From Candidatus Giovannonibacteria bacterium RIFOXYD1_FULL_48_21 (GTDB taxonomy: Bacteria; Patescibacteriota; Minisyncoccia; JACPKW01; UBA11713), in contig MFIU01000001.1 of NCBI GenBank assembly GCA_001778985.1, positions 50,111-114,110 on the forward strand: 64,000 nucleotides of DNA, read 5' to 3'. The notes beneath the pieces are model-generated. The model was not told the origin of the DNA. It was given only the letters and a program-made list of their open reading frames with translations, and did not search any database. The position numbers and the translations under genes are program-made. Shown here piece by piece: positions 3,707 through 55,079 of this stretch. The first letter of the stretch is position 1, and each line of letters starts with the position of its first letter.

Positions 3707-3772
3707 ACCCCGTTAGAAACGCCGAAGATATTTCGGCCAGGCGTCTATTCGGCGCCTGGTTTCTAACGGGGT
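3707..3772 (+). terminator. Structured element between the convergent clpP and gpmI genes. A 14-bp outer stem (ACCCCGTTAGAAAC / GTTTCTAACGGGGT) encloses two 6-bp hairpins and is followed by TTATTTT. It probably acts as a terminator. It belongs to the repeated clamp family described in the findings.
   Basis: Base pairing read directly: 3707-3720 pairs with 3759-3772. Inner hairpins are gccgaa/ttcggc and caggcg/cgcctg. T-rich 3' flank. Confidence 0.6.
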
Positions 3773-3780
3773 TTATTTTC

Positions 3781-5328
3781 CTAAAGTCTTTCAATTAAAC
3801 TCACGCCGTTCATCTCTGGCGGTTGAGTAAGGTTTAAGAGTTCGAGCACGGTCGGAGCCACGTCGCTTAAAACGCCCCCGACTTCCTCGTAGAGCTTATA
3901 AATTTCTTCCTGGCTTCGCGGTTTTTTCCTCTGAAATTTTTTCCCAATCAGAAAAAAAGGCACCGGATTCGCGGTATGCTTGGTGCTTTTTTCGCCGGTA
4001 AGGCGGTGTCGCTTCTCTTCGGCGTTGCCGTGATCCGCGGTGATAATCGCGACCCCGTCCGCCTCTAAAACTTTTTTAACTATTTTCCCGACCTCCGTAT
4101 CCAGAATTTCGAGCGCCTGGACCGTGGCGTCAAAATCGCCGGTATGGCCTACCAAGTCGGCGTTCGCGAAATTCACCAAAATAAAATCGTAGCGGGCCAG
4201 ATTGTCTATAACGCTCTGGGTAATCTGGGACGCGGACATGGCCGGGTTCTTCTCGTAGCGCGAGCCTGGCAAAGACGGCACCAAAATCCGCTCTTCGCCC
4301 GGATAAGGATTTTCTTTGCCGCCGTCAAAAAAATAGGTAACGTGGGCGTACTTGTCGGTCTCGGCGATATGAAGCTGTGAAAGTCCTTTCTCCGAAAGGA
4401 TTCTGGCCAAAGGCCAAGAAACGTCCATCGGCTCGAAGGCCGCCTCGACCGGAAGATTTTTCTGGTATTCGGTCATGGTCACGAAAACTAAATTTTCCAG
4501 CTTTTCTCTGGGAAATTTATCAAACCCGGTTTCGGCGAAGACTTGGGTGAGCTCGCGCGCCGAATCTTCCCTGAAATTGAAAAATATTACGGCGTCATTC
4601 TTCTTGATTCGTGACCCTGGATCTCCGTCCCAGGCTGGTTCAACAAATTCATCCGTAATTCCTTTCTCGTATTGGGATTCAAGATATTCAACCGGGGAGG
4701 CAAGCAAACTCCCCTCGCCCCTCGCAAGCAGAGCGTGGGTTTTCTCAATTTTCGCCCAATCGCCATCCCGGTCCATGGCGAAATCTCGCCCGATTATCGA
4801 AACGATTTTGGCGAAAGGATAAAGTTTGGACAAACGTTCCCTAAACTCCTTCAAAAAAGTTCCGGCCTCTTTGGGCGGCGCGTCCCGGCCGTCCGTGAAA
4901 AGATGCAGATAAACCCGGGGGAGATTTTCAAGTTTAGCGAATTCCAAAAGCGCGTAAAGATGGTCGGGATAGGCGTGGACCGAGCCGGAAGAGAAAAGAC
5001 CTATCAGATGCAGAGCTCCGGCGGTTTTTTTTACGTGTTCCGCGGCTTTTTTAAAAGCCTTATTTTCAAAAAAGGTTTTGTCCTGAATGGAAACCGAGAT
5101 TCTGGGAAGATGATGATAAAGGGTTTTCCCGGCGCCCAAGGTCAAATGCCCTACTTCGGAATTTCCCTCCTCACCCCAGGGAAGACCGACCGCGATGCCC
5201 GAGGCTTGCAAAGTGGTGAAAGGGAAAAATTTTTCGAGATACTCAAAATTATCTCTCTTTGCCTCCCAAAAAGTCGAGTCTTTCGAACTCGGCACCCCCA
5301 GCCCGTCCAGAATAATCAAAACCACCAT
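3781..5328 (-). CDS. gpmI: 2,3-bisphosphoglycerate-independent phosphoglycerate mutase
   Basis: 515 aa. N-terminal MVVLIILDGLG..., metal-binding ADHGN and other iPGM motifs. Confidence 0.9.
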   Translation of the reverse strand: MVVLIILDGLGVPSSKDSTFWEAKRDNFEYLEKFFPFTTLQASGIAVGLPWGEEGNSEVGHLTLGAGKTLYHHLPRISVSIQDKTFFENKAFKKAAEHVKKTAGALHLIGLFSSGSVHAYPDHLYALLEFAKLENLPRVYLHLFTDGRDAPPKEAGTFLKEFRERLSKLYPFAKIVSIIGRDFAMDRDGDWAKIEKTHALLARGEGSLLASPVEYLESQYEKGITDEFVEPAWDGDPGSRIKKNDAVIFFNFREDSARELTQVFAETGFDKFPREKLENLVFVTMTEYQKNLPVEAAFEPMDVSWPLARILSEKGLSQLHIAETDKYAHVTYFFDGGKENPYPGEERILVPSLPGSRYEKNPAMSASQITQSVIDNLARYDFILVNFANADLVGHTGDFDATVQALEILDTEVGKIVKKVLEADGVAIITADHGNAEEKRHRLTGEKSTKHTANPVPFFLIGKKFQRKKPRSQEEIYKLYEEVGGVLSDVAPTVLELLNLTQPPEMNGVSLIERL

Positions 5329-21705: not shown

Positions 21706-21980
21706 ATTGGCTTACCAAATTTTATCAGATTTTCCTTCTTTTCGCGGCGCCATCCTTTAATCTGTGTTTCGCGGCGCCTGGCTTCCAATAAAGCCTCAAA
21801 TCTCTCTACATAAACCAATTCTTCAGTTTTATTTCTTCTCGTAAACTCCGCGCCGTCGCCACTTTTATGTCTCTCTGTCCGCCTTTCAATATCGCCAGTA
21901 TATCCTACATAGAGATGGCCCTTTGCGCCGCGAAGTATATAAACAAAATACATAATGGACCGGAGAAAGGTCAAAGACAT
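21696..21980 (-). CDS. GIY-YIG nuclease domain protein
   Basis: FVYILRGAKGHLYVGYTGDIERRTERH: GIY...YIG with a catalytic Arg. Its last 10 nt overlap the 5' end of tRNA-Ala. Confidence 0.75.
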   Translation of the reverse strand: MSLTFLRSIMYFVYILRGAKGHLYVGYTGDIERRTERHKSGDGAEFTRRNKTEELVYVERFEALLEARRRETQIKGWRREKKENLIKFGKPMGL

Positions 21981-22040
21981 TGAGCGAGCGGAGCTTCGAC
22001 AAGCTCAGCTCATTTCTCCTCGCTCCGCGAGTCGAAATGT

Positions 22041-22085
22041 CGGGGTGCGGAGAATTGAACTCCGTCTTCGCGCACCTTCACCCCG
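22041..22085 (-). other. Degenerate tRNA-like minihelix (pseudo-tRNA fragment). It has an acceptor stem plus a T-arm, and lacks D and anticodon arms.
   Basis: Minus-sense reading: cggggtg + aaggtgcgcgaaga + cggag-ttcaatt-ctccg + caccccg + A. The T-loop is identical to that of tRNA-Ala. Confidence 0.35.
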
Positions 22086-22099
22086 TTAGATATTTCAGG

Positions 22100-22171
22100 T
22101 CGGGCCGGAGGGAGTCGAACCCTCTATCTCACGGACCCGAACCGTGCATGTTGCCGATACACTACGGCCCG
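22100..22171 (-). tRNA. tRNA-Pro (anticodon CGG)
   Basis: Manual fold: acceptor cgggccg/cggcccg; D-arm gtgt...acat; anticodon stem cacgg/ccgtg with loop ttcgggt; T-arm gaggg-ttcgact-ccctc; discriminator A. Confidence 0.8.
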
Positions 22172-22181
22172 ATATATCTAA

Positions 22182-22220
22182 CGGGGCGCGGCGCGCGTAC
22201 TGCCGGTATACTACACCCCG
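22182..22220 (-). other. Degenerate tRNA-like fragment: an acceptor 5' strand and a D-arm-like hairpin joined directly to an acceptor 3' strand
   Basis: Minus-sense reading: cggggtg-ta-gtataccggcagtac-gcgcgccg-cgccccg. Resembles the 5' part of the neighbouring tRNA-Pro. Confidence 0.3.
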
Positions 22221-22256
22221 CCTTCGCCAAGGCTTCGGCGGGCAAGCCCGCTAAAC

Positions 22257-32782: not shown

Positions 32783-34312
32783 ATGACCGCGGTCAAAACT
32801 CACTCTGCGGAAATTGTGGGCCTGGCGGGAGAGATAATCGACGTGGAGGTGGACCTCTCCCCGGGCCTTTTTCATTTTTCCATCGTGGGCCTCGCGGACA
32901 AGGCCGTGGAAGAATCAAAAGAACGGGTCTCCTCGGCCATTAAAAATTCCGGCCTCCGGCACCCCCAGAAAAAAAACCAGCGGGTCGTGGTTTCTCTCGC
33001 TCCGGCCGACCTCAAAAAAGAAGGACCTTTGTTTGACCTGGCGATTGCCTTAGGCTATCTTCTGGCTTCGAATCAGATTGAATTCGAGCCAAAAGGAAAA
33101 ATTTTTCTGGGAGAGCTTGCTCTCGACGGCGGCTTAAGAAAAATAAAAGGCGCGCTAGCGCTGGCGCTCGCGGCCAAAGACCAAGGCTTTCAGGAAATAA
33201 TTCTCCCGGAAGAAAATGCGGCGGAGGCCAGCTTGGTAGAAGGAATAAAAATATTTGGAGTTAAAAGCTTGGGTGAGGTGCTGAAACATCTTATCGGCGA
33301 GAAGACACTTTTACCCCAGCCGCGGCTTAAAATTGAAAATAAAACTTTTTATCCGTTTGATTTCGGGGAGATTAAAGGACAGGAGCTCTCAAAGAGAGGG
33401 CTCACCCTGGCCGCGGCCGGAGGACATCATGTTTTGATGGTGGGCCCTCCCGGAACCGGTAAAACCATGTTAGCCCGGGCCCTGCCTTCAATTCTTCCGG
33501 AGATGAACTTTGATGAAATGCTGGAGGTAACCCGGATTCACTCTGTTTCGGGAAATTTAAAAAAGGCTTACCTTTCGGAGCGTCCGTTTCGAAATCCGCA
33601 CCACACCGCCTCCTACGTGGCGCTGGTTGGCGGCGGCCAGAGTCCGCATCCGGGAGAGATTACTTTGGCGCACCGCGGGGTTTTGTTTCTGGATGAATTT
33701 CCGGAATTCGAACGAAGAGTTCTCGAAGCGCTCCGCCAGCCTCTGGAAGACGGCGAGATTACGGTTTCCCGCGCCAAAGGAACTATCACTTTTCCGGCGA
33801 GAAGCCTTTTGGTTTTTGCCATGAACCCCTGCCCTTGCGGGAATTTCGGCTCGGAGAAAAAACCCTGCCTCTGCTCCACGCAGACCTTGTATCGCTACCA
33901 AAGAAAGGTTTCAGGACCAATCGCGGACCGGATTGATATTTGGCTTGAGGTGCCGCACTTTGAACACGAGAAAATGAGTCAGAAATCCAAACCAGAAAGT
34001 GAAGCAATTCGACAAAGAGTGAAGAGGGCTCGGGAAATTCAGGGAGAGCGCTTTCACGGCAAAGACATCGCTCTGAACGCCGAGATGCGGCCGAAAGAGC
34101 TGGAGGAGCTTACCCCGCTCTCTGGAGAAAACCAGGAACTTCTGCACACGGCCGCTAAAAAATTAGACCTCTCGGCCCGGGCCTATCACCGCGTGATTAA
34201 ACTTTCGCGCACCATCGCGGACCTCGAAGAATCTAAAAACATAAAACAAGAGCATCTTTTGGAAGCGCTCCAATACCGCCCCCGAAAAAACTTTTTCGTG
34301 TATGAAACTTGA
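32783..34312 (+). CDS. comM: ComM/YifB Mg-chelatase-like AAA+ ATPase
   Basis: N-terminal Lon-like domain (VSLAPADLKKEGPLFDLAIALGYL); Walker A GPPGTGKTM; ChlI-type C-terminus. Confidence 0.9.
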   Translation: MTAVKTHSAEIVGLAGEIIDVEVDLSPGLFHFSIVGLADKAVEESKERVSSAIKNSGLRHPQKKNQRVVVSLAPADLKKEGPLFDLAIALGYLLASNQIEFEPKGKIFLGELALDGGLRKIKGALALALAAKDQGFQEIILPEENAAEASLVEGIKIFGVKSLGEVLKHLIGEKTLLPQPRLKIENKTFYPFDFGEIKGQELSKRGLTLAAAGGHHVLMVGPPGTGKTMLARALPSILPEMNFDEMLEVTRIHSVSGNLKKAYLSERPFRNPHHTASYVALVGGGQSPHPGEITLAHRGVLFLDEFPEFERRVLEALRQPLEDGEITVSRAKGTITFPARSLLVFAMNPCPCGNFGSEKKPCLCSTQTLYRYQRKVSGPIADRIDIWLEVPHFEHEKMSQKSKPESEAIRQRVKRAREIQGERFHGKDIALNAEMRPKELEELTPLSGENQELLHTAAKKLDLSARAYHRVIKLSRTIADLEESKNIKQEHLLEALQYRPRKNFFVYET

Positions 34313-34346
34313 CCGAGAGTTAAGAATCTACTAAAATTAGTTCATC

Positions 34347-34532
34347 ATGACTCTGAACACCGAGATAAAAATTAAGAAAATGGAACGGGAGATAAAAGAA
34401 CTCTGGCAAATAGTCGGGGATGAGATATTTTGGCATCCCTCGGTTATCGATGAAATAAAAAAACGCTCGCGCCAAAGCCATTTGAATTTGAAGAAACTCA
34501 AGACCGCCAAAGAGCTTTTCGCATCCATTTAG
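34347..34532 (+). CDS. Small putative antitoxin-like protein
   Basis: 61 aa, charged and helical. Its stop directly abuts the ATG of the truncated RelE/ParE-like ORF. Confidence 0.35.
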   Translation: MTLNTEIKIKKMEREIKELWQIVGDEIFWHPSVIDEIKKRSRQSHLNLKKLKTAKELFASI

Positions 34533-34664
34533 ATGGCTAAGGTCTTATTTTCACCTGCGGCGGAGAAAGACGTAAAACATCTCGAGGCAGGCGTCCAAAC
34601 TGAATTAAAAGATAAACACATTCGCGATAATTTCTATAAAAAGTTTTCTCGACGAATTCGCTAG
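34533..34664 (+). pseudogene. Truncated RelE/ParE-like toxin remnant (43 codons)
   Basis: MAKVLFSPAAEKDVKHLEAGVQTELKDKHI resembles the N-terminus of RelE/ParE toxins, but the ORF stops after 43 aa with no continuation in the other frames. Confidence 0.35.
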
Positions 34665-34699
34665 CAACGAAAAAGCGCGTAAGGCCTTATTTTTCGAGG

Positions 34700-35719
34700 C
34701 TAAAACGGGTTCCTCGCCCCGCGGACCTCAAAATGCACATGGCAGCCGGTGGATTGGCCGGTGCGGCCGACATAGCCCAAAACCTGGCCCTGAACCACAT
34801 GCCAGCCAGGAGACGCAATGATTCCGTTTAAGTGAGCGTAAAGAGTCTGGGTACCGTTGGAATGGGAGAGGACGGCATACTGGCCGTAGCCGCCGTTCCA
34901 GCCGGTCGGCCGCGAAATCAAAACCTCTCCCGAAGCCGAGGCCAAAATCGGCGAGCCGCAATAAGTCGCGAGGTCAACTCCGTTATAGCCGTGAAGCCCT
35001 TGTGACTTCCGGCCGCCATTTATCGGTCTAATATAGTACCCGGAGTAACTCGGGCCGCCGGTTCCGCGGACGTTAGACGACGAATAGCTGACAAGCGGTT
35101 CTGCTTCACCGTTGGGAATGATGAGGGCCATCCCTTCCTCTAAAACGTCTTCCGAACCAAGCCCGTTGAAGCTTAAAATCTCTTCAGCATCCCCGCCGAA
35201 TTTTTTGGCAATGAACTTAAGCGTATCGCCTTTTTTAACCGTGTACTGCACTCCGGAGACCGGCAGAATCACCAGCACTTCGCCGGGGCTTATCAGGGTG
35301 GAGCGCGTAAGGTTGTTAGCCCAGCGGATGGTGTTGACTGAAACCCCGAAAATTCTGGCGATGGAAGAAAGAGTATCTCCCTGCCGCACCGCGTAAAGCG
35401 AGATTGAATCCGGCCGTTGCTCCACCACGTCCGCGATGGAGCCCAACGGCCCGGTTACGGGCAAGAGGGCGGAATTTTGCACGATATTAACCTCACCGCC
35501 GCCCACGCCCGCCAAAAGATTGGCGTTAAACGGCGCCGAAAGCAGGGGCAGGGTTTGAGAATTCCCCGAGATCGTGCTGGCCTCATTGGTCCAGCCGAGA
35601 ATCTTCTCAAAAATATTGAAAAATTTAGCCTCTGCTCGGGAAAGGCCTAAAAGAAAAGAAAAAAACAAAGAAATAATCAAAAAGCCGAGAAGAAAAAGCG
35701 CGTTTGAATTGGAGTACAA
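34700..35719 (-). CDS. M23-family metallopeptidase with two LysM domains
   Basis: LysM repeats (YAVRQGDTLSSIARIFGVSVNTI and YTVKKGDTLKFIAKKFG). M23 catalytic motifs (HGYNGVDL, HVHFEV). Confidence 0.85.
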   Translation of the reverse strand: MYSNSNALFLLGFLIISLFFSFLLGLSRAEAKFFNIFEKILGWTNEASTISGNSQTLPLLSAPFNANLLAGVGGGEVNIVQNSALLPVTGPLGSIADVVEQRPDSISLYAVRQGDTLSSIARIFGVSVNTIRWANNLTRSTLISPGEVLVILPVSGVQYTVKKGDTLKFIAKKFGGDAEEILSFNGLGSEDVLEEGMALIIPNGEAEPLVSYSSSNVRGTGGPSYSGYYIRPINGGRKSQGLHGYNGVDLATYCGSPILASASGEVLISRPTGWNGGYGQYAVLSHSNGTQTLYAHLNGIIASPGWHVVQGQVLGYVGRTGQSTGCHVHFEVRGARNPF

Positions 35720-35833: not shown

Positions 35834-37711
35834 ATGTCAATGGAATTTAGCTTAAATCAGGCTCAAGAAAGGGCTGTATTGACAGCGGACGGCCCAGTAT
35901 TGATAGTAGCAGGGGCTGGTTCAGGCAAAACCATGGTCTTGGCGCACCGCATAGCGCATCTGATTGAAAAAGGCGTCAAGGCAGACCAGATTTTGGCCAT
36001 CACTTTCACCAATAAGGCGGCTGAAGAGATGCGGAATCGCATAAACTCCTTAATTCCCAATTCCCAATTCCCAATTCCCAAACCCTGGGTGGGCACCTTT
36101 CACTCTTTTTCGGCCTTTGTCCTGCGCCAATCAGGCCGGGCCATTGGCGTTGGCAAAACTTTCTCGATTGTGGACGAAGAAGACAGCTTGGCCCTGGTCA
36201 AAGAAGCGCTCGCGGATTTAGAATTGGACCCTAAAAAATTTGAACCAAGAAAACTTCGCGCCCTAATCTCTCGAAAGAAAAACGAAATGGAAGGCCGGGA
36301 AAATTTTAATCAAAGTTATTTTGAAAAAATTCTCGTCCGGGTCTGGGAAAAATATGAAGAGAAGTTGGAAAAAGCCAAAGCGCTCGACTTTGACGACCTG
36401 CTTTTGAAAACCGTGGAACTTTTCTCTAAACACCCCGGGATTTTGGAAGAATGGCAGGAACGCTTCCGCTATCTCCACGTGGACGAATACCAGGACACCA
36501 ATTTGGTGCAGTACCATCTGGCGAAACTTCTCGCCCAAAAATACAGAAATATCTGCGTGGTGGGCGATATTGACCAGGCGATTTACTCCTGGCGCGGCGC
36601 AGACTTCAGAAACATCCTTCATTTCGAACGGGACTGGCCGGAGGCGAAAATAATCACCCTGGAGGAAAATTACCGCTCCACCCAATTGATTCTCGACGCC
36701 GCGAACGCCGTGATTGTCAAAAACAAATCACGCGTTCCTAAAAATCTTTTCTCACAGAAAAAATCCGGCCCCAAGATTACTCTTTTTGAATCCGTAAGCG
36801 AAGAAGAAGAGGCCAGCTTCATCGCGGCGCTTTCCAAAACCCTGGTTCGGGACGGCAAAATCCCGCCGCGGGAGATCGCGGTTCTGTACCGCACCAATTT
36901 CCAGTCGCGGATTCTGGAAGAAAAAATGTTAGAGGAGAATATTCCATACCAAGTGGTGGGCGTTAAATTTTACGAACGAAAAGAAATCAAAGACACGCTC
37001 GCCTACCTCAAGGCCTCGTTAAATAGCGAAGATTTGCTTTCAGTAAAAAGAATAATAAATTTTCCGCCGCGCGGAATCGGGAAAGCGCTTTTGACGAAGT
37101 TTTTGGCTGGAGAAAAATTGCGACAGGCAGAAGAGTTCATAAAAATAACCTCGGAAATTAAAGATGCAATCGAAACAAAAAACGCGAGTGAGGCTGTAAA
37201 AAGCGTCATCCAAAAATCCGGCCTCGAGGACTATCTTCAAGACGGAACAGAGGAAAGCGAGATGAGGCTTTCAAATATAAAAGAACTCGTGACCCTTGCC
37301 AGGCGCTATGACGAAGCTAAACCGCCGGAAGGGATTTTAAAACTTTTGGAGGACGCGGCGTTGATGTCTGAACAGGATACCATGAAAAAGGAAGAGAACT
37401 CCGTGAAACTTATGACCGTGCACGCGGCCAAAGGCCTGGAATTTAAAATGGTTTTTATCGCGGGCCTCGAAGAAGGATTATTTCCGCACCGCGCCATCTC
37501 CAGAGAAGACGAAGAACTGCGCCAGGAAGAAGAAAGACGGCTTTTTTACGTGGCCTTAACCCGCGCCAAGGAGAAAATCTATCTCTCCTACGCCGTTTTT
37601 CGGACTATTTTCGGAGAGCGAAGAATCAATCTTCCGTCGAGTTTTCTCTTGGATATCCCGGAGGAGTTTTTAGAGCGCGCCCCGGATAAAATAATCACTT
37701 TGGAATCATGA
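35834..37711 (+). CDS. pcrA: ATP-dependent DNA helicase PcrA/UvrD, short form
   Basis: GAGSGKT Walker A, DEYQDTN motif II, TVHAAKGLEF motif. Contains an in-frame (AATTCCC)x4 repeat at 36052-36079. Confidence 0.9.
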   Translation: MSMEFSLNQAQERAVLTADGPVLIVAGAGSGKTMVLAHRIAHLIEKGVKADQILAITFTNKAAEEMRNRINSLIPNSQFPIPKPWVGTFHSFSAFVLRQSGRAIGVGKTFSIVDEEDSLALVKEALADLELDPKKFEPRKLRALISRKKNEMEGRENFNQSYFEKILVRVWEKYEEKLEKAKALDFDDLLLKTVELFSKHPGILEEWQERFRYLHVDEYQDTNLVQYHLAKLLAQKYRNICVVGDIDQAIYSWRGADFRNILHFERDWPEAKIITLEENYRSTQLILDAANAVIVKNKSRVPKNLFSQKKSGPKITLFESVSEEEEASFIAALSKTLVRDGKIPPREIAVLYRTNFQSRILEEKMLEENIPYQVVGVKFYERKEIKDTLAYLKASLNSEDLLSVKRIINFPPRGIGKALLTKFLAGEKLRQAEEFIKITSEIKDAIETKNASEAVKSVIQKSGLEDYLQDGTEESEMRLSNIKELVTLARRYDEAKPPEGILKLLEDAALMSEQDTMKKEENSVKLMTVHAAKGLEFKMVFIAGLEEGLFPHRAISREDEELRQEEERRLFYVALTRAKEKIYLSYAVFRTIFGERRINLPSSFLLDIPEEFLERAPDKIITLES

Positions 37712-37781
37712 ACCCCGTTAGAAATAAATCGCCCAAGGCGATTGCCGACATGCCTTTGGCAAGTCGGATTTCTAACGGGGT
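37712..37781 (+). other. Second copy of the clamp-type structured element. A 14-bp outer stem (ACCCCGTTAGAAAT / ATTTCTAACGGGGT) encloses two hairpins, between the pcrA stop and the ksgA start.
   Basis: 37712-37725 pairs with 37768-37781. Inner hairpins are aatcgcc/ggcgatt and ccgac..tgcc-ttt-ggca..gtcgg. The probable ksgA ATG (37750) lies inside the second hairpin. Confidence 0.55.
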
Positions 37782-38520
37782 GAAGCCAAAAAAGCGGCTG
37801 GGACAGCATTTTTTAAGGAATAAAAAAATTCTGGAAGAAATTGCTCGGGCGGCCGAGCTTTCGAAGCGAGATATAGTTCTAGAAGTTGGCCCGGGACACG
37901 GAGAACTTACGGAATTTTTGGCCGCATCCGCTGGAAAAGTTATCGCCGTGGAAAAAGACCATGAACTTACTCTATTTCTTAAAGAAAAATTCAAAAATTA
38001 CAAAAATGTCGAAATCGTTGAAGGAGATATTTTGAAAATTGGAAAATTGAAAATTGAAAATTATAAAGTGGCGGCAAATCTTCCATACTACATTACTTCG
38101 CGTTTTTTGCGGGCTTTTCTGGAGGCAAAAAATAAGCCAAAGCTCATGGTCTTAATGGTACAATACGAGGTCGCAAAACGAATTTGCGCGAAGCCGCCCG
38201 GAATGAATTTGCTGGCGCTCTCGGTTCAGGCTTACGCCCGACCGAAGTTTATCAGAAAAGTTTCAAAAAAATATTTCTTCCCTCCGCCCAAAGTTGACTC
38301 TGCTATTATCAAATTGTTGAACATTGAATGTTCAACATGTTCGACATTGCCGCCAAAGTTTTGGAAGGTAGTGCGCTTGGCCTTCCAGCAGAAACGAAAA
38401 ATGCTCCGGCATTTATCCGTGCCGAAAAAATATGAAACCAAGCGCCCCCAGGAACTTTCGCTGGAAGATTGGCTAAAAATCATCCGCAGCCGCAAATATT
38501 TAACATGCCATCCCAAATAA
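37750..38520 (+). CDS. rsmA: 16S rRNA (adenine1518/1519-N6)-dimethyltransferase
   Basis: RLGQHFL, SAM-binding VLEVGPGHGELT, NLPYYIT. Start chosen at MPLASRISN; the ORF track starts at 37708. Contains an in-frame (GAAAATT)x4 repeat at 38034-38062. Confidence 0.85.
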   Translation: MPLASRISNGVKPKKRLGQHFLRNKKILEEIARAAELSKRDIVLEVGPGHGELTEFLAASAGKVIAVEKDHELTLFLKEKFKNYKNVEIVEGDILKIGKLKIENYKVAANLPYYITSRFLRAFLEAKNKPKLMVLMVQYEVAKRICAKPPGMNLLALSVQAYARPKFIRKVSKKYFFPPPKVDSAIIKLLNIECSTCSTLPPKFWKVVRLAFQQKRKMLRHLSVPKKYETKRPQELSLEDWLKIIRSRKYLTCHPK

Positions 38521-52480: not shown

Positions 52481-53848
52481 ATGACTAACGAGGAATTGTG
52501 GCAAGCCGCCCTGAATGAGCTGGAACTAGCCGTTTCCAAAGCCAACTTCATAACCTGGTTCCAGAATACTTCAATCGCGGCGCACCAGGACGGAGTGGTG
52601 GTTTTAAACGTACCAAACGCTTTCGCCAAAGAATGGCTGGAATATAAATACCATAAATTTATCGTAAAGGCGCTAAGAGGACTTTCGCCGGAGATTAGAA
52701 ATATTGAATACGTGATTTCTTCGGAACTGGCGCCGCTTTTGCAAAAACGCCGCCGCGAGAAGGGGATCGCGCCGCAAGAAGAGCAATTGGAATTTAAAGA
52801 ATTAATGGTGGACCGGGAAACTAATCTAAACCCCCGCTACACCTTTGATTCTTTTGTGGTGGGGCCTTTTAACGAACTCGCGCACGCGGCCGCGGCGGCG
52901 GTGAGCAAAAATTTAGGGCGGGCGTATAATCCTTTATTCGTATACGGCGGGGTTGGTCTGGGAAAAACCCATCTCTTGCAGGCCGTGGGCAACGCCGTCA
53001 AAAAAAATTCTCCGCGCCTGAAATTAATCTACACCACCTCGGAACGCTTCACCACCGAATTGGTGAATTTTATCCAAAACAATGAAACGCATATTTTTAA
53101 AGACAAATACCGCTCTTATGATTTACTGATAATTGACGACATCCAATTTATTTCCGGGAAGGTAAAGACCCAGGAAGAACTTTTTCATATCTTTAACTTG
53201 TTATACGAAACCGGAAAACAAATTATATTTTCTTCAGACAAGCCTCCGCACGCGATTCATGATTTGGAAGAGAGATTGAAAAGCAGATTTGAGGGAGGAA
53301 TGGTGGCGGATATCGGTCAGCCGGAGTATGAATCGAGGTTGGCAATTTTAAAATCAAAGTCTTTTGGAAAAGAAAATTATTTAAACCCAGAAGTCTTGGG
53401 TTTTATCGCTGCCAATGTCCAAAAAAATATAAGGGAGCTGGAGGGGGCGCTAAATTCAGTGGTCGCGAAATCCAAACTTTCCGGGAGAATTTTAAATATA
53501 CCGGAAGTTAAGGAAATTATAGATAAAAACACGCAACCAAAAAGAATCGTAACCGCAAACCAGATAATAAAATGCGTGGCTGAATTTTATGACATAAATG
53601 AGAAGATATTATTCGAAAAAACCAGGAAAAAAGAGGTGGTTAAGCCAAGACAGATAGCCATGTATTTATTAAGGGAGGATTTCAGCGGCTCTTATCCTTT
53701 TATTGGACAGCGTTTTGGGGGAAGAGACCACACCACCGCCATCCATTCCTATGAAAAGATTTTCAATGAGTTGAAAAAGAATGCACAACTTATTGAAGAA
53801 GTGAAGAGAATCCGTGAATTATATGATTACAATTATTTAAATAAATAA
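52481..53848 (+). CDS. dnaA: Chromosomal replication initiator DnaA
   Basis: AAA+ motifs GGVGLGKTHLLQA and LLIIDDIQF. C-terminal DNA-binding domain. Confidence 0.95.
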   Translation: MTNEELWQAALNELELAVSKANFITWFQNTSIAAHQDGVVVLNVPNAFAKEWLEYKYHKFIVKALRGLSPEIRNIEYVISSELAPLLQKRRREKGIAPQEEQLEFKELMVDRETNLNPRYTFDSFVVGPFNELAHAAAAAVSKNLGRAYNPLFVYGGVGLGKTHLLQAVGNAVKKNSPRLKLIYTTSERFTTELVNFIQNNETHIFKDKYRSYDLLIIDDIQFISGKVKTQEELFHIFNLLYETGKQIIFSSDKPPHAIHDLEERLKSRFEGGMVADIGQPEYESRLAILKSKSFGKENYLNPEVLGFIAANVQKNIRELEGALNSVVAKSKLSGRILNIPEVKEIIDKNTQPKRIVTANQIIKCVAEFYDINEKILFEKTRKKEVVKPRQIAMYLLREDFSGSYPFIGQRFGGRDHTTAIHSYEKIFNELKKNAQLIEEVKRIRELYDYNYLNK

Positions 53849-53981
53849 AATTAATAAAATTTCATCACGACCTTTCTTCAGTTTTTCAACAGGTAGTTCT
53901 ATATTAATAAATTGAAAAATAAATAAATTTAAACAATAAAATAATCTTTCCACATTATAAACAGATCTAAATAATATTAAT

Positions 53982-55079
53982 ATGAAATTAATATGTGATA
54001 AGAATGAATTTTATAAATTATTAACACTGGCGGAAAGAAATACCAGTAAAAATCCAACCCTCCCCGCACTTTCCGCCGTCTTACTTAAAACTTCTAAAAA
54101 TAGACTTATTATTATTAGTACAAATTTAGAAGTAGGTTTTGAGGGCACCATACCTTCCAAAATAGAAGAGGAGGGCGAGGTGACCCCGCCTATTAAAACC
54201 TTAATTTCCGTCATATTTTCGATTCCCGAGGGGGAAATAGCCCTGGAAAGCAAAAATCAAAACCTGAAAATAATCTCTAAAACCTCCACCACAAATTTAA
54301 AATGTTTTTCCACAGAAGATTTTCCCCTACTGCCAAAAATAAAAAAAGAAAATTATTTAAATATTCCCCAAGAAACCCTCACCCACGCGCTTAGAAATAC
54401 TCTCCCCGCCAGCGCCGCCACCTACACCAAGCCGGAATTAGCCAGTATTTATATTTTTTCCCAAAATAAAATTCCCCTGACTTTCGTGGCCACTGATTCT
54501 TTTCGTCTCGCGGAACAAAAAACTCAAATTACTTCTCCGGCCCTTTCCCTGCTTTTACCTCAAAAAAGCGGCCAGGAGGTAGTTAGGATTTTTGAAGAAA
54601 CCCAAGGCGACATTGAAATTATTTTCAATAAAAACCAAATTGTTTTTCAAAATAAAAACCTGTCCTTTATCTCGCGCCTGACAGAGGGTAAATTTCCCGA
54701 ATATCAAAATATCATTCCCCAGTCATTTTTAACCCAAGTAGTTGCCGATAAAAATAATCTTATAAATTCCATCCGCGCCGCCGGCATTTTTTCGAGCCGC
54801 CTCTCAGAGGTTTTAATTTCCGTAAATTCAACAGAGGGAATTTTAGAAGTAAAATCTTCCAATAGTGATACCGGGGAATATCTCTCCTCCACGCCCGCCA
54901 AAATCTCCGGTCAGAGCTTAGAGATTAACTTCAACTATCACTATTTTCTGGAAGCCCTGCAAGCCATCTCCAATCAGAAAGTTTTTCTGGGTTTTAACGG
55001 CCCCCAGAAAGCGGTTTTAGTCAGGGGGTTTGAGGAGAGCTCCTATTTGCATCTAGTCATGCCCCTGAAGGGAGTTTAG
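53982..55079 (+). CDS. dnaN: DNA polymerase III beta sliding clamp
   Basis: 365-aa three-domain clamp in the canonical position after dnaA. Confidence 0.9.
   Translation: MKLICDKNEFYKLLTLAERNTSKNPTLPALSAVLLKTSKNRLIIISTNLEVGFEGTIPSKIEEEGEVTPPIKTLISVIFSIPEGEIALESKNQNLKIISKTSTTNLKCFSTEDFPLLPKIKKENYLNIPQETLTHALRNTLPASAATYTKPELASIYIFSQNKIPLTFVATDSFRLAEQKTQITSPALSLLLPQKSGQEVVRIFEETQGDIEIIFNKNQIVFQNKNLSFISRLTEGKFPEYQNIIPQSFLTQVVADKNNLINSIRAAGIFSSRLSEVLISVNSTEGILEVKSSNSDTGEYLSSTPAKISGQSLEINFNYHYFLEALQAISNQKVFLGFNGPQKAVLVRGFEESSYLHLVMPLKGV

Follow-up and report, generated by a model that had tools for sequence, protein, structure and literature searches.

For the disrupted tRNA-Thr of Caldiarchaeum, an integration model for tRNA genes has been put forward (PMC3293823); group I introns were recently catalogued in the tRNAs of Patescibacteria, including at position 35/36 (PMC13011429); and repetitive extragenic palindromic (REP) elements tagged with GTAG or CGTC have been described in bacteria (PMC3733652). 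In a 64-kb window of DNA from Candidatus Giovannonibacteria (Patescibacteria/candidate phyla radiation, CPR), the whole stretch that was analyzed and to which all coordinates refer unless a locus is named, a resident tRNA-Pro(CGG) gene is split in its anticodon loop by a palindromic insert that carries a complete tRNA-Pro gene of its own. The insert is probably a non-autonomous palindromic mobile element with a tRNA cargo, which knocked out and functionally replaced the resident gene. The arrangement was not found in the literature on nested tRNA genes, CPR tRNA introns, and tRNA gene replacement, which is not proof of its absence.

In part, the locus resembles several known systems. Integrative elements, such as islands, prophages, and the archaeal elements of the pNOB8/SSV type, are alike in that a tRNA gene is entered by foreign DNA, in many cases at its anticodon loop, that the function is kept through tRNA sequence brought along by this DNA, and that a displaced fragment stays behind. 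Unlike those elements, the insert here is 114 nt long, has no integrase, ends in inverted repeats instead of direct attachment (att) repeats, and brings a complete tRNA of its own, where those elements supply a 3′ segment that is joined to the resident 5′ part; both resident halves remain around the insert. The REP/REPIN-RAYT elements and the miniature inverted-repeat transposable elements (MITEs; Correia, RUP, ERIC) are likewise non-coding, multi-copy, and intergenic, with perfectly complementary arms, copies that nest, and a conserved tetranucleotide at the hairpin foot. In contrast, the tag here is TGAA but not GTAG or CGTC, the variable centre can hold a predicted working tRNA gene, and the insertions lie in the D, anticodon, and T loops of tRNA genes with inconsistent target duplication; with this tag and no Y1_Tnp domain or transposase among the ~50 open reading frames (ORFs) of the window that were scanned, the insert does not fall within the REP/REPIN-RAYT systems. 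A likeness to the integron attC site (RYYYAAC ... GTTRRRY) was judged coincidental, as the order is reversed here (GTTAGAT ... ATCTAAC), the seventh base is unconserved, and the cargo lies inside the hairpin.

Two halves of one tRNA-Pro(CGG) gene around a 114-nt insert

The intact form of the outer gene was found in two sister Giovannonibacteria, L088 and L089 (L-numbers denote the related or comparison loci analyzed), whose CCA-adding enzymes are 85 and 80% identical to that of the window at the protein level, respectively. In both, a 71-nt tRNA-Pro(CGG) gene, CGGGGTGTAGTATACCGGCAGTACGCGCGC-TTCG-GGTGCGCGAAGACGGAGTTCAATTCTCCGCACCCCGA, starts 1–2 nt after the stop codon of the CCA-adding enzyme gene (CCA gene). 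The window sequence 22220-22191 equals the first 30 nt of this gene and 22076-22040 equals its last 37 nt, with 0 mismatches in 67 nt, and the 50-nt spacer after the outer tRNA is also common to the three loci. In between, TTCG of the intact gene (loop positions 32–35) is swapped for 114 nt (22190-22077). The same state can equally well be described as T32T33 changed to CG with 110 nt inserted between G35 and G36; the CGCG at this junction is either the left end of the insert, which elsewhere reads CTTG, CACG, or CCTG, or the resident TTCG with TT changed to CG. The 5′ part comprises the acceptor strand CGGGGTG, TA, the D arm GTAT-ACCGGCA-GTAC, G26, and the 5′ strand of the anticodon stem, CGCGC. 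The 3′ part begins with G36 G37 T38, the 3′ strand of the anticodon stem, GCGCG, and the variable loop AAGA, and continues with the T arm CGGAG-TTCAATT-CTCCG, the acceptor 3′ strand CACCCCG, and A73. When introns were allowed, ARAGORN joined the two parts as well, and reported 22039-22220 as one tRNA with a 110-nt insert, while the anticodon that it assigned (gaa, tRNA-Phe) is meaningless, the real one being gone. As TTCG is gone and precise removal of the hairpin leaves the loop CGAAGGT or TGAAGGT, no decoding tRNA is obtained from the outer gene.

The window and the two sister loci are therefore a filled and an empty version of one orthologous site, the sole such pair found. The CCA genes of the window and L088 are 82% identical at the DNA level, and the insertion appears to postdate the split from L088, because an equally old pseudogene should show several substitutions over 67 nt and none was seen. 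The nested locus was base-for-base the same in the 8 contigs examined, which come from independent samples and assemblers, and an assembly artefact is therefore excluded. Two strain variants of the window species (L315 and L316) carried the identical locus, with no polymorphic empty site.

The insert runs from CGCG through the left arm, AT, the inner tRNA, CCTGAA, and the right arm to TGAA (Table 1). Its tRNA scored 56.3 bits with the Rfam tRNA model RF00005 (gathering threshold 29), was called as Pro(CGG) by ARAGORN, and had the cloverleaf as its minimum free energy (MFE) structure. It carries C1-G72 and A73, which are typical of bacterial tRNA-Pro, and is presumed to be the working gene. The inner and outer tRNA-Pro(CGG) differ in sequence and share the same orientation, and CCA is encoded in neither of them. 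The arrangement is far from a chance one: among 209 scanned ARAGORN calls from ~85 Patescibacteria loci (189 after removal of duplicate copies of the window locus), a flanking perfect inverted repeat of at least 12 bp was present at 6 distinct places, 4 of which are insert copies or nested cases (window, L029, L051, and L091), while the best flanking repeat of nearly all other tRNAs was at most 8 bp. The idea that CGGGG of the clamp, formed by the paired arms, represents the resident anticodon was discarded, since the elements in tRNA-Ala genes carry CAGGG, which is unrelated to CGC.

Folding of the 190-nt region gave an MFE of -94.2 kcal/mol (z = -6.0), and 0 of 200 shuffles were as good. In this structure, the outer CGGGGTG (22220-22214) pairs with CACCCCG (22047-22041), the outer T arm forms, and the 15-nt clamp arms pair with each other, giving a rod that consists of an 8-bp CG helix, a 1 × 2 internal loop, the 15-bp clamp, and the inner tRNA as a cap.

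A preliminary description of the locus had interpreted the sequences on both sides of the inner tRNA as two degenerate tRNA half-molecules, each closing on itself, that were either relics of a tandem duplication or functional minihelices. The tRNA-Pro(CGG) between them is confirmed at 22171-22100, and the strings that it quoted are all present in place on the minus strand, with 22220-22182 reading CGGGGTG-TA-GTAT-ACCGGCA-GTAC-GCGCGCCG-CGCCCCG and 22085-22041 reading CGGGGTG-AAGGTGCGCGAAGA-CGGAG-TTCAATT-CTCCG-CACCCCG. The pieces are genuinely tRNA-derived and are remnants of a tRNA gene; they are, however, not two degenerate halves but undamaged parts of a single gene, which the intron mode fuses into one tRNA. 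The orthologous loci of L088 and L089 hold one intact tRNA gene that corresponds to both pieces joined, without a tandem array, which contradicts a duplication origin.

Self-closing of the pieces is possible on paper, via cggggtg/cgccccg or cggggtg/caccccg, and the isolated 3′ piece (22085-22041) does fold as an acceptor stem plus T-arm minihelix, having, like tRNA minihelices, a true acceptor 3′ strand and T arm. The partners were nevertheless misassigned. What was taken as the acceptor 5′ strand (22085-22079) is the right-arm end CGGGG followed by TG, the real partner lying 170 nt upstream, and the supposed 14-nt linker consists of TGAA from the insert end and tRNA positions 36–48 of the split gene. 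The pairing cggggtg/cgccccg required for minihelix RNAs belongs to the insert arms, which are also found away from tRNAs. When three self-closed units were forced, the energy of the 190-nt region rose to -75.1 kcal/mol, a cost of 19 kcal/mol; the 5′ piece (22220-22182) alone folded at shuffle level (z = -0.4), with its D hairpin not in the MFE structure, and the 3′ piece alone was marginal (z = -1.7). In the L091/L296 lineage described below, moreover, the outer pieces are decayed while the inner tRNA is unchanged, which speaks against functional flanking RNAs. Independent half-molecules, whether relics or minihelices, can thus hardly account for the locus.

Palindromic hairpins and nested tRNA genes in other Patescibacteria

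The same tRNA-Pro(CGG) within the same arms was found in two Parcubacteria, L091 and L296, where it lies downstream of a HIT gene, a setting with no relation to the window locus. L091 was the sole match of a metagenome scan with a degenerate pattern, a scan with an exact 32-nt pattern of the inner tRNA having given no match, and L296 was obtained by a protein-anchored look-up; their ROK proteins are 70% identical. The cargo tRNA is 72/72 identical between the two and 71/72 identical to that of the window. Their arms, CCCCGTTAGAAA/TTTCTAACGGGG, show a compensatory difference from the window arms (GATAT/ATATC vs. GAAA/TTTC), and, as in the window, the right arm of L296 is followed by TGAAG. On the right side of the L091 insert lies the 3′ half (positions 38–73) of another tRNA-Pro with the acceptor strand CTCTCCG, while in L296 the HIT stop codon is followed by the first 15 nt of a resident tRNA-Pro that further insertions have disrupted, and the left arm has degenerated. 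This insertion therefore predates the split of the two species. The outer gene is decaying in this lineage, with its 5′ half missing or disrupted and one arm degenerated, whereas the inner tRNA has stayed the same, a pattern that points to selection on the inner gene.

Elements with such arms form a family: they are short, palindromic, and non-coding, with arms of the form CCCCG..../....CGGGG that TGAA usually follows. Three copies occur in the 64-kb window, so that the arms are terminal inverted repeats in multiple dispersed copies, as in MITE- or REP-like elements. The arm core CCCCGTTAGA is common to the window copies at 3708 and 37713, to L091, and to phage contigs; the same 10–13-nt arms were present in ~20 IMG/VR contigs, and further copies in L091, L296, and L084. 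The IMG/VR contigs that were checked are genuinely phage-like, carrying a Mu-type transposase, capsid proteins, or a serine recombinase, and their hairpin loops range from 3 to 142 nt, with copies at times nested in one another. The inner stem varies between copies but keeps perfect Watson-Crick complementarity. Most Patescibacteria copies have TGAA after the right arm, and among the family members this tetranucleotide was seen in the window copy at 37713 and in L029, L051 (twice), L084 (opposite strand), L231, L246, L268, and L296. Rfam holds no family for the hairpin, the cargo-less copies giving just sub-threshold generic hairpin matches. Scans of viral contigs for the inner tRNA or for cargo-sized copies returned no match, a loose gapped pattern yielding chance matches, and the 114-nt insert was unmatched in curated phage genomes.

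Two of these copies have particular surroundings. The one at 37713-37780 (region 37708-37790) overlaps the stop codon of the uvrD-like gene (37711) and lies within the first 25 codons of the longest ksgA-like ORF, with the frame open through the element. In a phage-like contig (L246/L255, 2599-2766), hairpin copies that nest one inside another lie directly at the 3′ end of the gene for a large serine recombinase (Pfam Resolvase, Recombinase, and Zn_ribbon_recom).

Nesting of one tRNA gene in another was also observed for other amino acids. In L084, an inner tRNA-Ala(CGC) with the arms CCCTGTTAGA/TCTAACAGGG and the ends TTCA...CAAG lies in the anticodon loop of an outer tRNA-Ala, and in L039 an inner tRNA-Ala(CGC) is inserted exactly at 37/38 of an outer tRNA-Ala(CGC), which has a second small hairpin insert in addition. 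Three cases were found in L051: a tRNA-Val(CAC) in the D loop of an outer tRNA-Val(CAC), the anticodon loop of which holds a cargo-less copy; a tRNA-Ala(CGC) at position 33/34 of an outer tRNA-Ala(CGC); and a tRNA-Arg(CCT) in the T loop of an outer tRNA-Arg(CCT). In L029, a tRNA-Arg(CCT) occupies the T loop of an outer gene with an unreadable anticodon. After in silico removal of the inserts, ARAGORN gave each readable outer gene the anticodon of its cargo, and the cargo was always in the orientation of the outer gene (sense). With ~40 tRNA species per genome, 5 cognate matches out of 5 are not attributable to chance. An automatic detector with strict criteria for outer halves found just two cases, the window and the Ala case of L051, as the other outer genes are interrupted in the D or T arm or decayed; the latter were parsed manually, and the parses were checked by rebuilding the genes and running ARAGORN. 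The L051 outer genes also contain stem mismatches and a second insertion. Nested replacement is a recurrent route of tRNA gene replacement in Patescibacteria, and apparently one not described before.

At L051 (CAYOTC010000002.1; 1604-2119 and 2699-2915), the neighbouring Val-CAC, Ala-CGC, and Arg-CCT genes are all nested replacements, and the outer genes hold extra hairpin inserts of 20–130 nt; in the syntenic cluster of L029, Val and Ala are intact and Arg alone is nested, a contrast that would suit the dating of events. At L039 (1659-1840), a tRNA-Pro(CGG) lies between badly decayed outer tRNA-Pro-like halves, CGGGGATTAGCGCAGCGGTAGCGCGCCACC ... ATCCCCGA, with a 9-bp imperfect clamp that lacks the CCCCG/TGAA motifs; it may be an older replacement at the same locus downstream of the CCA gene.

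A tRNA-inside-tRNA intron, excised from the RNA through the action of RNase P, RNase Z, and a ligase or nuclease so that both tRNAs are functional, would agree with part of these data. As in tRNA introns and in split or permuted tRNAs, a tRNA gene is interrupted in a loop and a helix is formed at the junction, where the clamp would keep the halves together. The window insert lies in the anticodon loop, where group I introns of Patescibacteria occur, including position 35/36 (PMC13011429); the L039 insert is exactly at 37/38 with the outer anticodon loop intact; removal of the L051 inserts leaves callable tRNAs; and the outer halves of the window are without substitutions. However, splicing could not restore a decoder in the window because the anticodon is deleted, and neither of the two loops left by precise hairpin removal contains U33 or CGG. 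Group I introns have a conserved P3-P8 core and ~200 nt or more, whereas the insert is 114 nt, 72 of them tRNA, and shows no such core; Intron_gpI gave no match at the gathering threshold, and no Rfam intron matched even at E ≤ 10. The bulge-helix-bulge motif, defined as two 3-nt bulges on opposite strands with a 4-bp helix between them at the exon-intron junctions, is also missing, the window junction being a 1-nt/2-nt internal loop between the 8-bp and 15-bp helices; nor was it seen on manual inspection of L084 and L051. A splicing endonuclease is not known from bacteria. Further, the interrupting sequence is itself a tRNA gene, a second tRNA with an identical anticodon would be superfluous, decay of the outer genes is seen in L091, L296, and L051, and the same element is present in non-tRNA DNA. 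On this evidence an intron is very unlikely, although it keeps a small probability for L039, whose outer loop is intact.

Proposed replacement mechanism and competing routes

The structure of the locus is close to certain, and its origin through a mobile element whose tRNA cargo rescues the lost function is probable; for this, the following course is proposed. The element would arrive at the DNA level, with the enzyme supplied in trans, and would prefer single-stranded loops in hairpin or cloverleaf DNA, either within tRNA genes (D, anticodon, and T loops) or within other copies of the element. By removing TTCG of TTCGGGT, the insertion would leave the outer gene, taken to be single-copy, unable to make a decoding tRNA, while transcription would continue from the resident promoter. 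In the transcript, the outer 5′ part and the left arm would act as a 5′ leader and the right arm and the outer 3′ part as a trailer, with the 13–15-bp clamp shielding the inner cloverleaf, so that it does not mispair with the outer halves that resemble it. The inner tRNA, once freed by RNase P and a 3′ endonuclease or exonuclease, would receive CCA enzymatically because neither gene encodes it, and the cargo tRNA would take over the function destroyed by the insertion. In a reduced genome with single-copy tRNA genes, only cognate, sense-oriented insertions would be expected to survive, which would mimic target specificity. With time the outer halves would decay, the net effect being tRNA gene turnover, and homologous recombination via the conserved halves could spread the nested allele within the genus.

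A broader and more tentative reading, which we hold to be possible but somewhat short of even chances, is that Patescibacteria carry miniature palindromic elements with tRNA cargo that insert in the loops of cognate tRNA genes as ‘selfish tRNA genes’. The window, with its pristine outer halves, would then be a fresh event, and L091, L296, and L051 would be older ones.

Several points weigh against a mobile element. The flanks of the target sites are inconsistent, being TGAA/TGAA or TTTA/TTTA vs. CNNG/TGAA in the copies inserted in tRNAs, and the phage copies have palindromic or A/T-run flanks; many of the latter, flanked by an A-run and a T-run, resemble ordinary bidirectional terminators, so the shared stem could in part reflect a functional terminator-like hairpin rather than transposition. 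The ~50 window ORFs scanned include no transposase, RAYT, TnpB, or other mobilising enzyme, and the sole recombinase nearby is an XerC/D-type integrase 5.5 kb away with unrelated genes in between; mobility is read from the distribution of the copies only. The orientation of the cargo relative to the asymmetric ends of the element differs between L084 and the other cases, the proposed mobility does not explain how a tRNA entered the loop of the element, and the pristine outer halves of the window are what continued function would also give.

Two specific agents were considered for the insertion and rejected. An IS200/IS605-style insertion 3′ of TTCA does not reproduce the junctions, as TTCA/TGAA moves together with the element and the TTCG of the resident gene disappears. 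The small GIY-YIG gene downstream of the locus, as the responsible homing nuclease, is not found beside the L091, L296, or L084 copies.

The integrase in the window also raises the question of a scar, in which an island or prophage brought tRNA-Pro and was afterwards deleted almost wholly. Integrative elements commonly hit tRNA genes, including anticodon loops, as in the archaeal model (PMC3293823), a tyrosine recombinase gene is present at the 5.5 kb distance given above, and att-type duplicated tRNA halves exist in L040 and L012. Against this, the junctions of the window carry no direct tRNA repeats, each outer half occurring once and the two complementing each other to make up one gene. At its ends, the insert has a 13–15-bp inverted repeat of a multi-copy hairpin family, and the same compact arms with the 72-nt tRNA are found in L091 and L296, which independent deletions would not give. 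We regard such a scar as highly improbable.

Spread by homologous recombination, with the nested allele moving by transformation via the tRNA halves and their flanks, would place the allele in a cognate gene automatically. It would also agree with the 100% identity of the outer tRNA-Pro and the 50-nt downstream spacer among the window, L088, and L089, and with the tRNA-Ala(CGC) of the locus, which is clearly swapped between species. But the first entry into a tRNA type and the cargo-less copies at non-tRNA sites are left unexplained by this route, and the outer remnant of L091/L296 (acceptor CTCTCCG) and the outer gene of the window (CACCCCG) differ in sequence and lie at different loci. Recombination is thus unlikely to be the explanation, while being compatible with a mobile element as a secondary route.

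As to significance, the pair of filled and empty sites shows directly how a foreign cognate copy can replace a tRNA gene in a minimal genome, and tRNA turnover may be common in these bacteria since the adjoining tRNA-Ala is also swapped. The data point to an undescribed small mobile element with an unusual target, tRNA-gene and hairpin loops, and an unusual cargo; they suggest a logic by which only cognate hits survive. If the reading as ‘selfish tRNA genes’ is true, these would be a force behind the horizontal turnover of tRNA genes in genomes where each tRNA is single-copy. The nested loci are, in addition, natural constructs for the handling by RNase P and RNase Z of a tRNA that is clamped by a leader-trailer helix.

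Neighbouring features and tRNA annotation

Table 1. Features of the nested tRNA-Pro(CGG) locus, its neighbours, and the cargo-less hairpin copies in the 64-kb window.
Feature	Position	Strand	Basis or remark
CCA-adding enzyme gene	23735-22257	minus	
GC-rich stretch, 36 nt	22256-22221	minus	
Outer tRNA-Pro(CGG), 5′ part (tRNA positions 1–31)	22191..22220	minus	30/30 nt identical to L088, L089
Junction tetranucleotide CGCG (intact gene: TTCG)	22187..22190	minus	Comparison with L088, L089, and other copies
Left arm CCCCGTTAGATAT	22174..22186	minus	Perfect 13-bp complement of 22093-22081
2-nt spacer AT after left arm	22173-22172	minus	
Inner (cargo) tRNA-Pro(CGG), complete, 72 nt	22100..22171	minus	ARAGORN; Rfam RF00005; cloverleaf fold
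6-nt spacer CCTGAA before right arm	22099-22094	minus	
Right arm ATATCTAACGGGG	22081..22093	minus	Left-arm complement
TGAA after right arm	22077..22080	minus	Same position in most family members
Outer tRNA-Pro(CGG), 3′ part (positions 36–73)	22040..22076	minus	37/37 nt identical to L088, L089
Small GIY-YIG gene	21980-21696	minus	Pfam PF01541, 85–94 aa
tRNA-Ala(CGC)	21705-21635	minus	
Cargo-less copy, TTTA, CCCCGTTAGAAAC-38 nt-GTTTCTAACGGGG, TTTA	3708..3771		Between convergent ClpP and iPGM genes
Cargo-less copy, TGAA, CCCCGTTAGAAAT-42 nt-ATTTCTAACGGGG, TGAA	37713..37780		Junction of uvrD-like and ksgA-like genes

All features of the tRNA-Pro locus are on the minus strand, with the CCA-adding enzyme gene first and tRNA-Ala(CGC) last. 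In distant relatives, the synteny of the CCA gene, an un-nested tRNA-Pro(CGG), and tRNA-Ala(CGC) is kept. The palindromic GC-rich 36 nt between the CCA stop codon and the outer tRNA (22221-22256, minus), GTTTAGCGGGCTTGCCCGCCGAAGCCTTGGCGAAGG, are missing from L088 and L089, where the tRNA begins 1–2 nt past the CCA stop; a near-identical match precedes tRNA-Pro(CGG) in the distant relative L009 (~4875-4911), and the stretch is probably another small repeated element. The spacer 3′ of the outer tRNA (21975-22039, minus), CATTTCGACTCGCGGAGCGAGGAGAAATGAGCTGAGCTTGTCGAAGCTCCGCTCGCTCAATGTC, forms an imperfect hairpin and has counterparts in L088 (2128-2190) and L089 (4047-4100). It is nearly identical between the window and L088, although the adjoining CCA gene is just 82% identical.

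The GIY-YIG gene overlaps the start of tRNA-Ala(CGC) by 10 nt and has no counterpart in L088 and L089. Between the window and L088, tRNA-Ala(CGC) is 55/71 identical, while tRNA-Arg(TCG) and tRNA-Pro(TGG) are 100% identical; by this comparison the tRNA-Ala at the locus has therefore been replaced as well. This replacement possibly arrived as a GIY-YIG plus tRNA cassette, for which the SegB nuclease within the tRNA cluster of phage T4 is a parallel. Elsewhere in the window, dnaA and dnaN adjoin each other (52481-55079), and because these two genes lie side by side, the replication origin region is probably inside the window.

Stray or duplicated tRNA 5′ halves beside full genes were noted for Pro-TGG in L040 (1701-1823), Ala in L012 (5163-5200), and Gly-GCC in L072 (1504-1540). 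With the L040 duplication ending in the anticodon loop, such halves suggest att-type scars, which would be separate from the palindromic element. Stray tRNA halves of this kind could be mistaken for novel RNAs in annotation, where standard tools report the inner gene of a nested locus alone and intron-aware tools mis-call the outer one. For the true nested loci, the ARAGORN intron mode assigned wrong anticodons, Phe in the window and Glu in L084, and this mode also produced many spurious long-intron tRNAs that join the halves of neighbouring genes, at 34086-34915 in the window and at several other loci.

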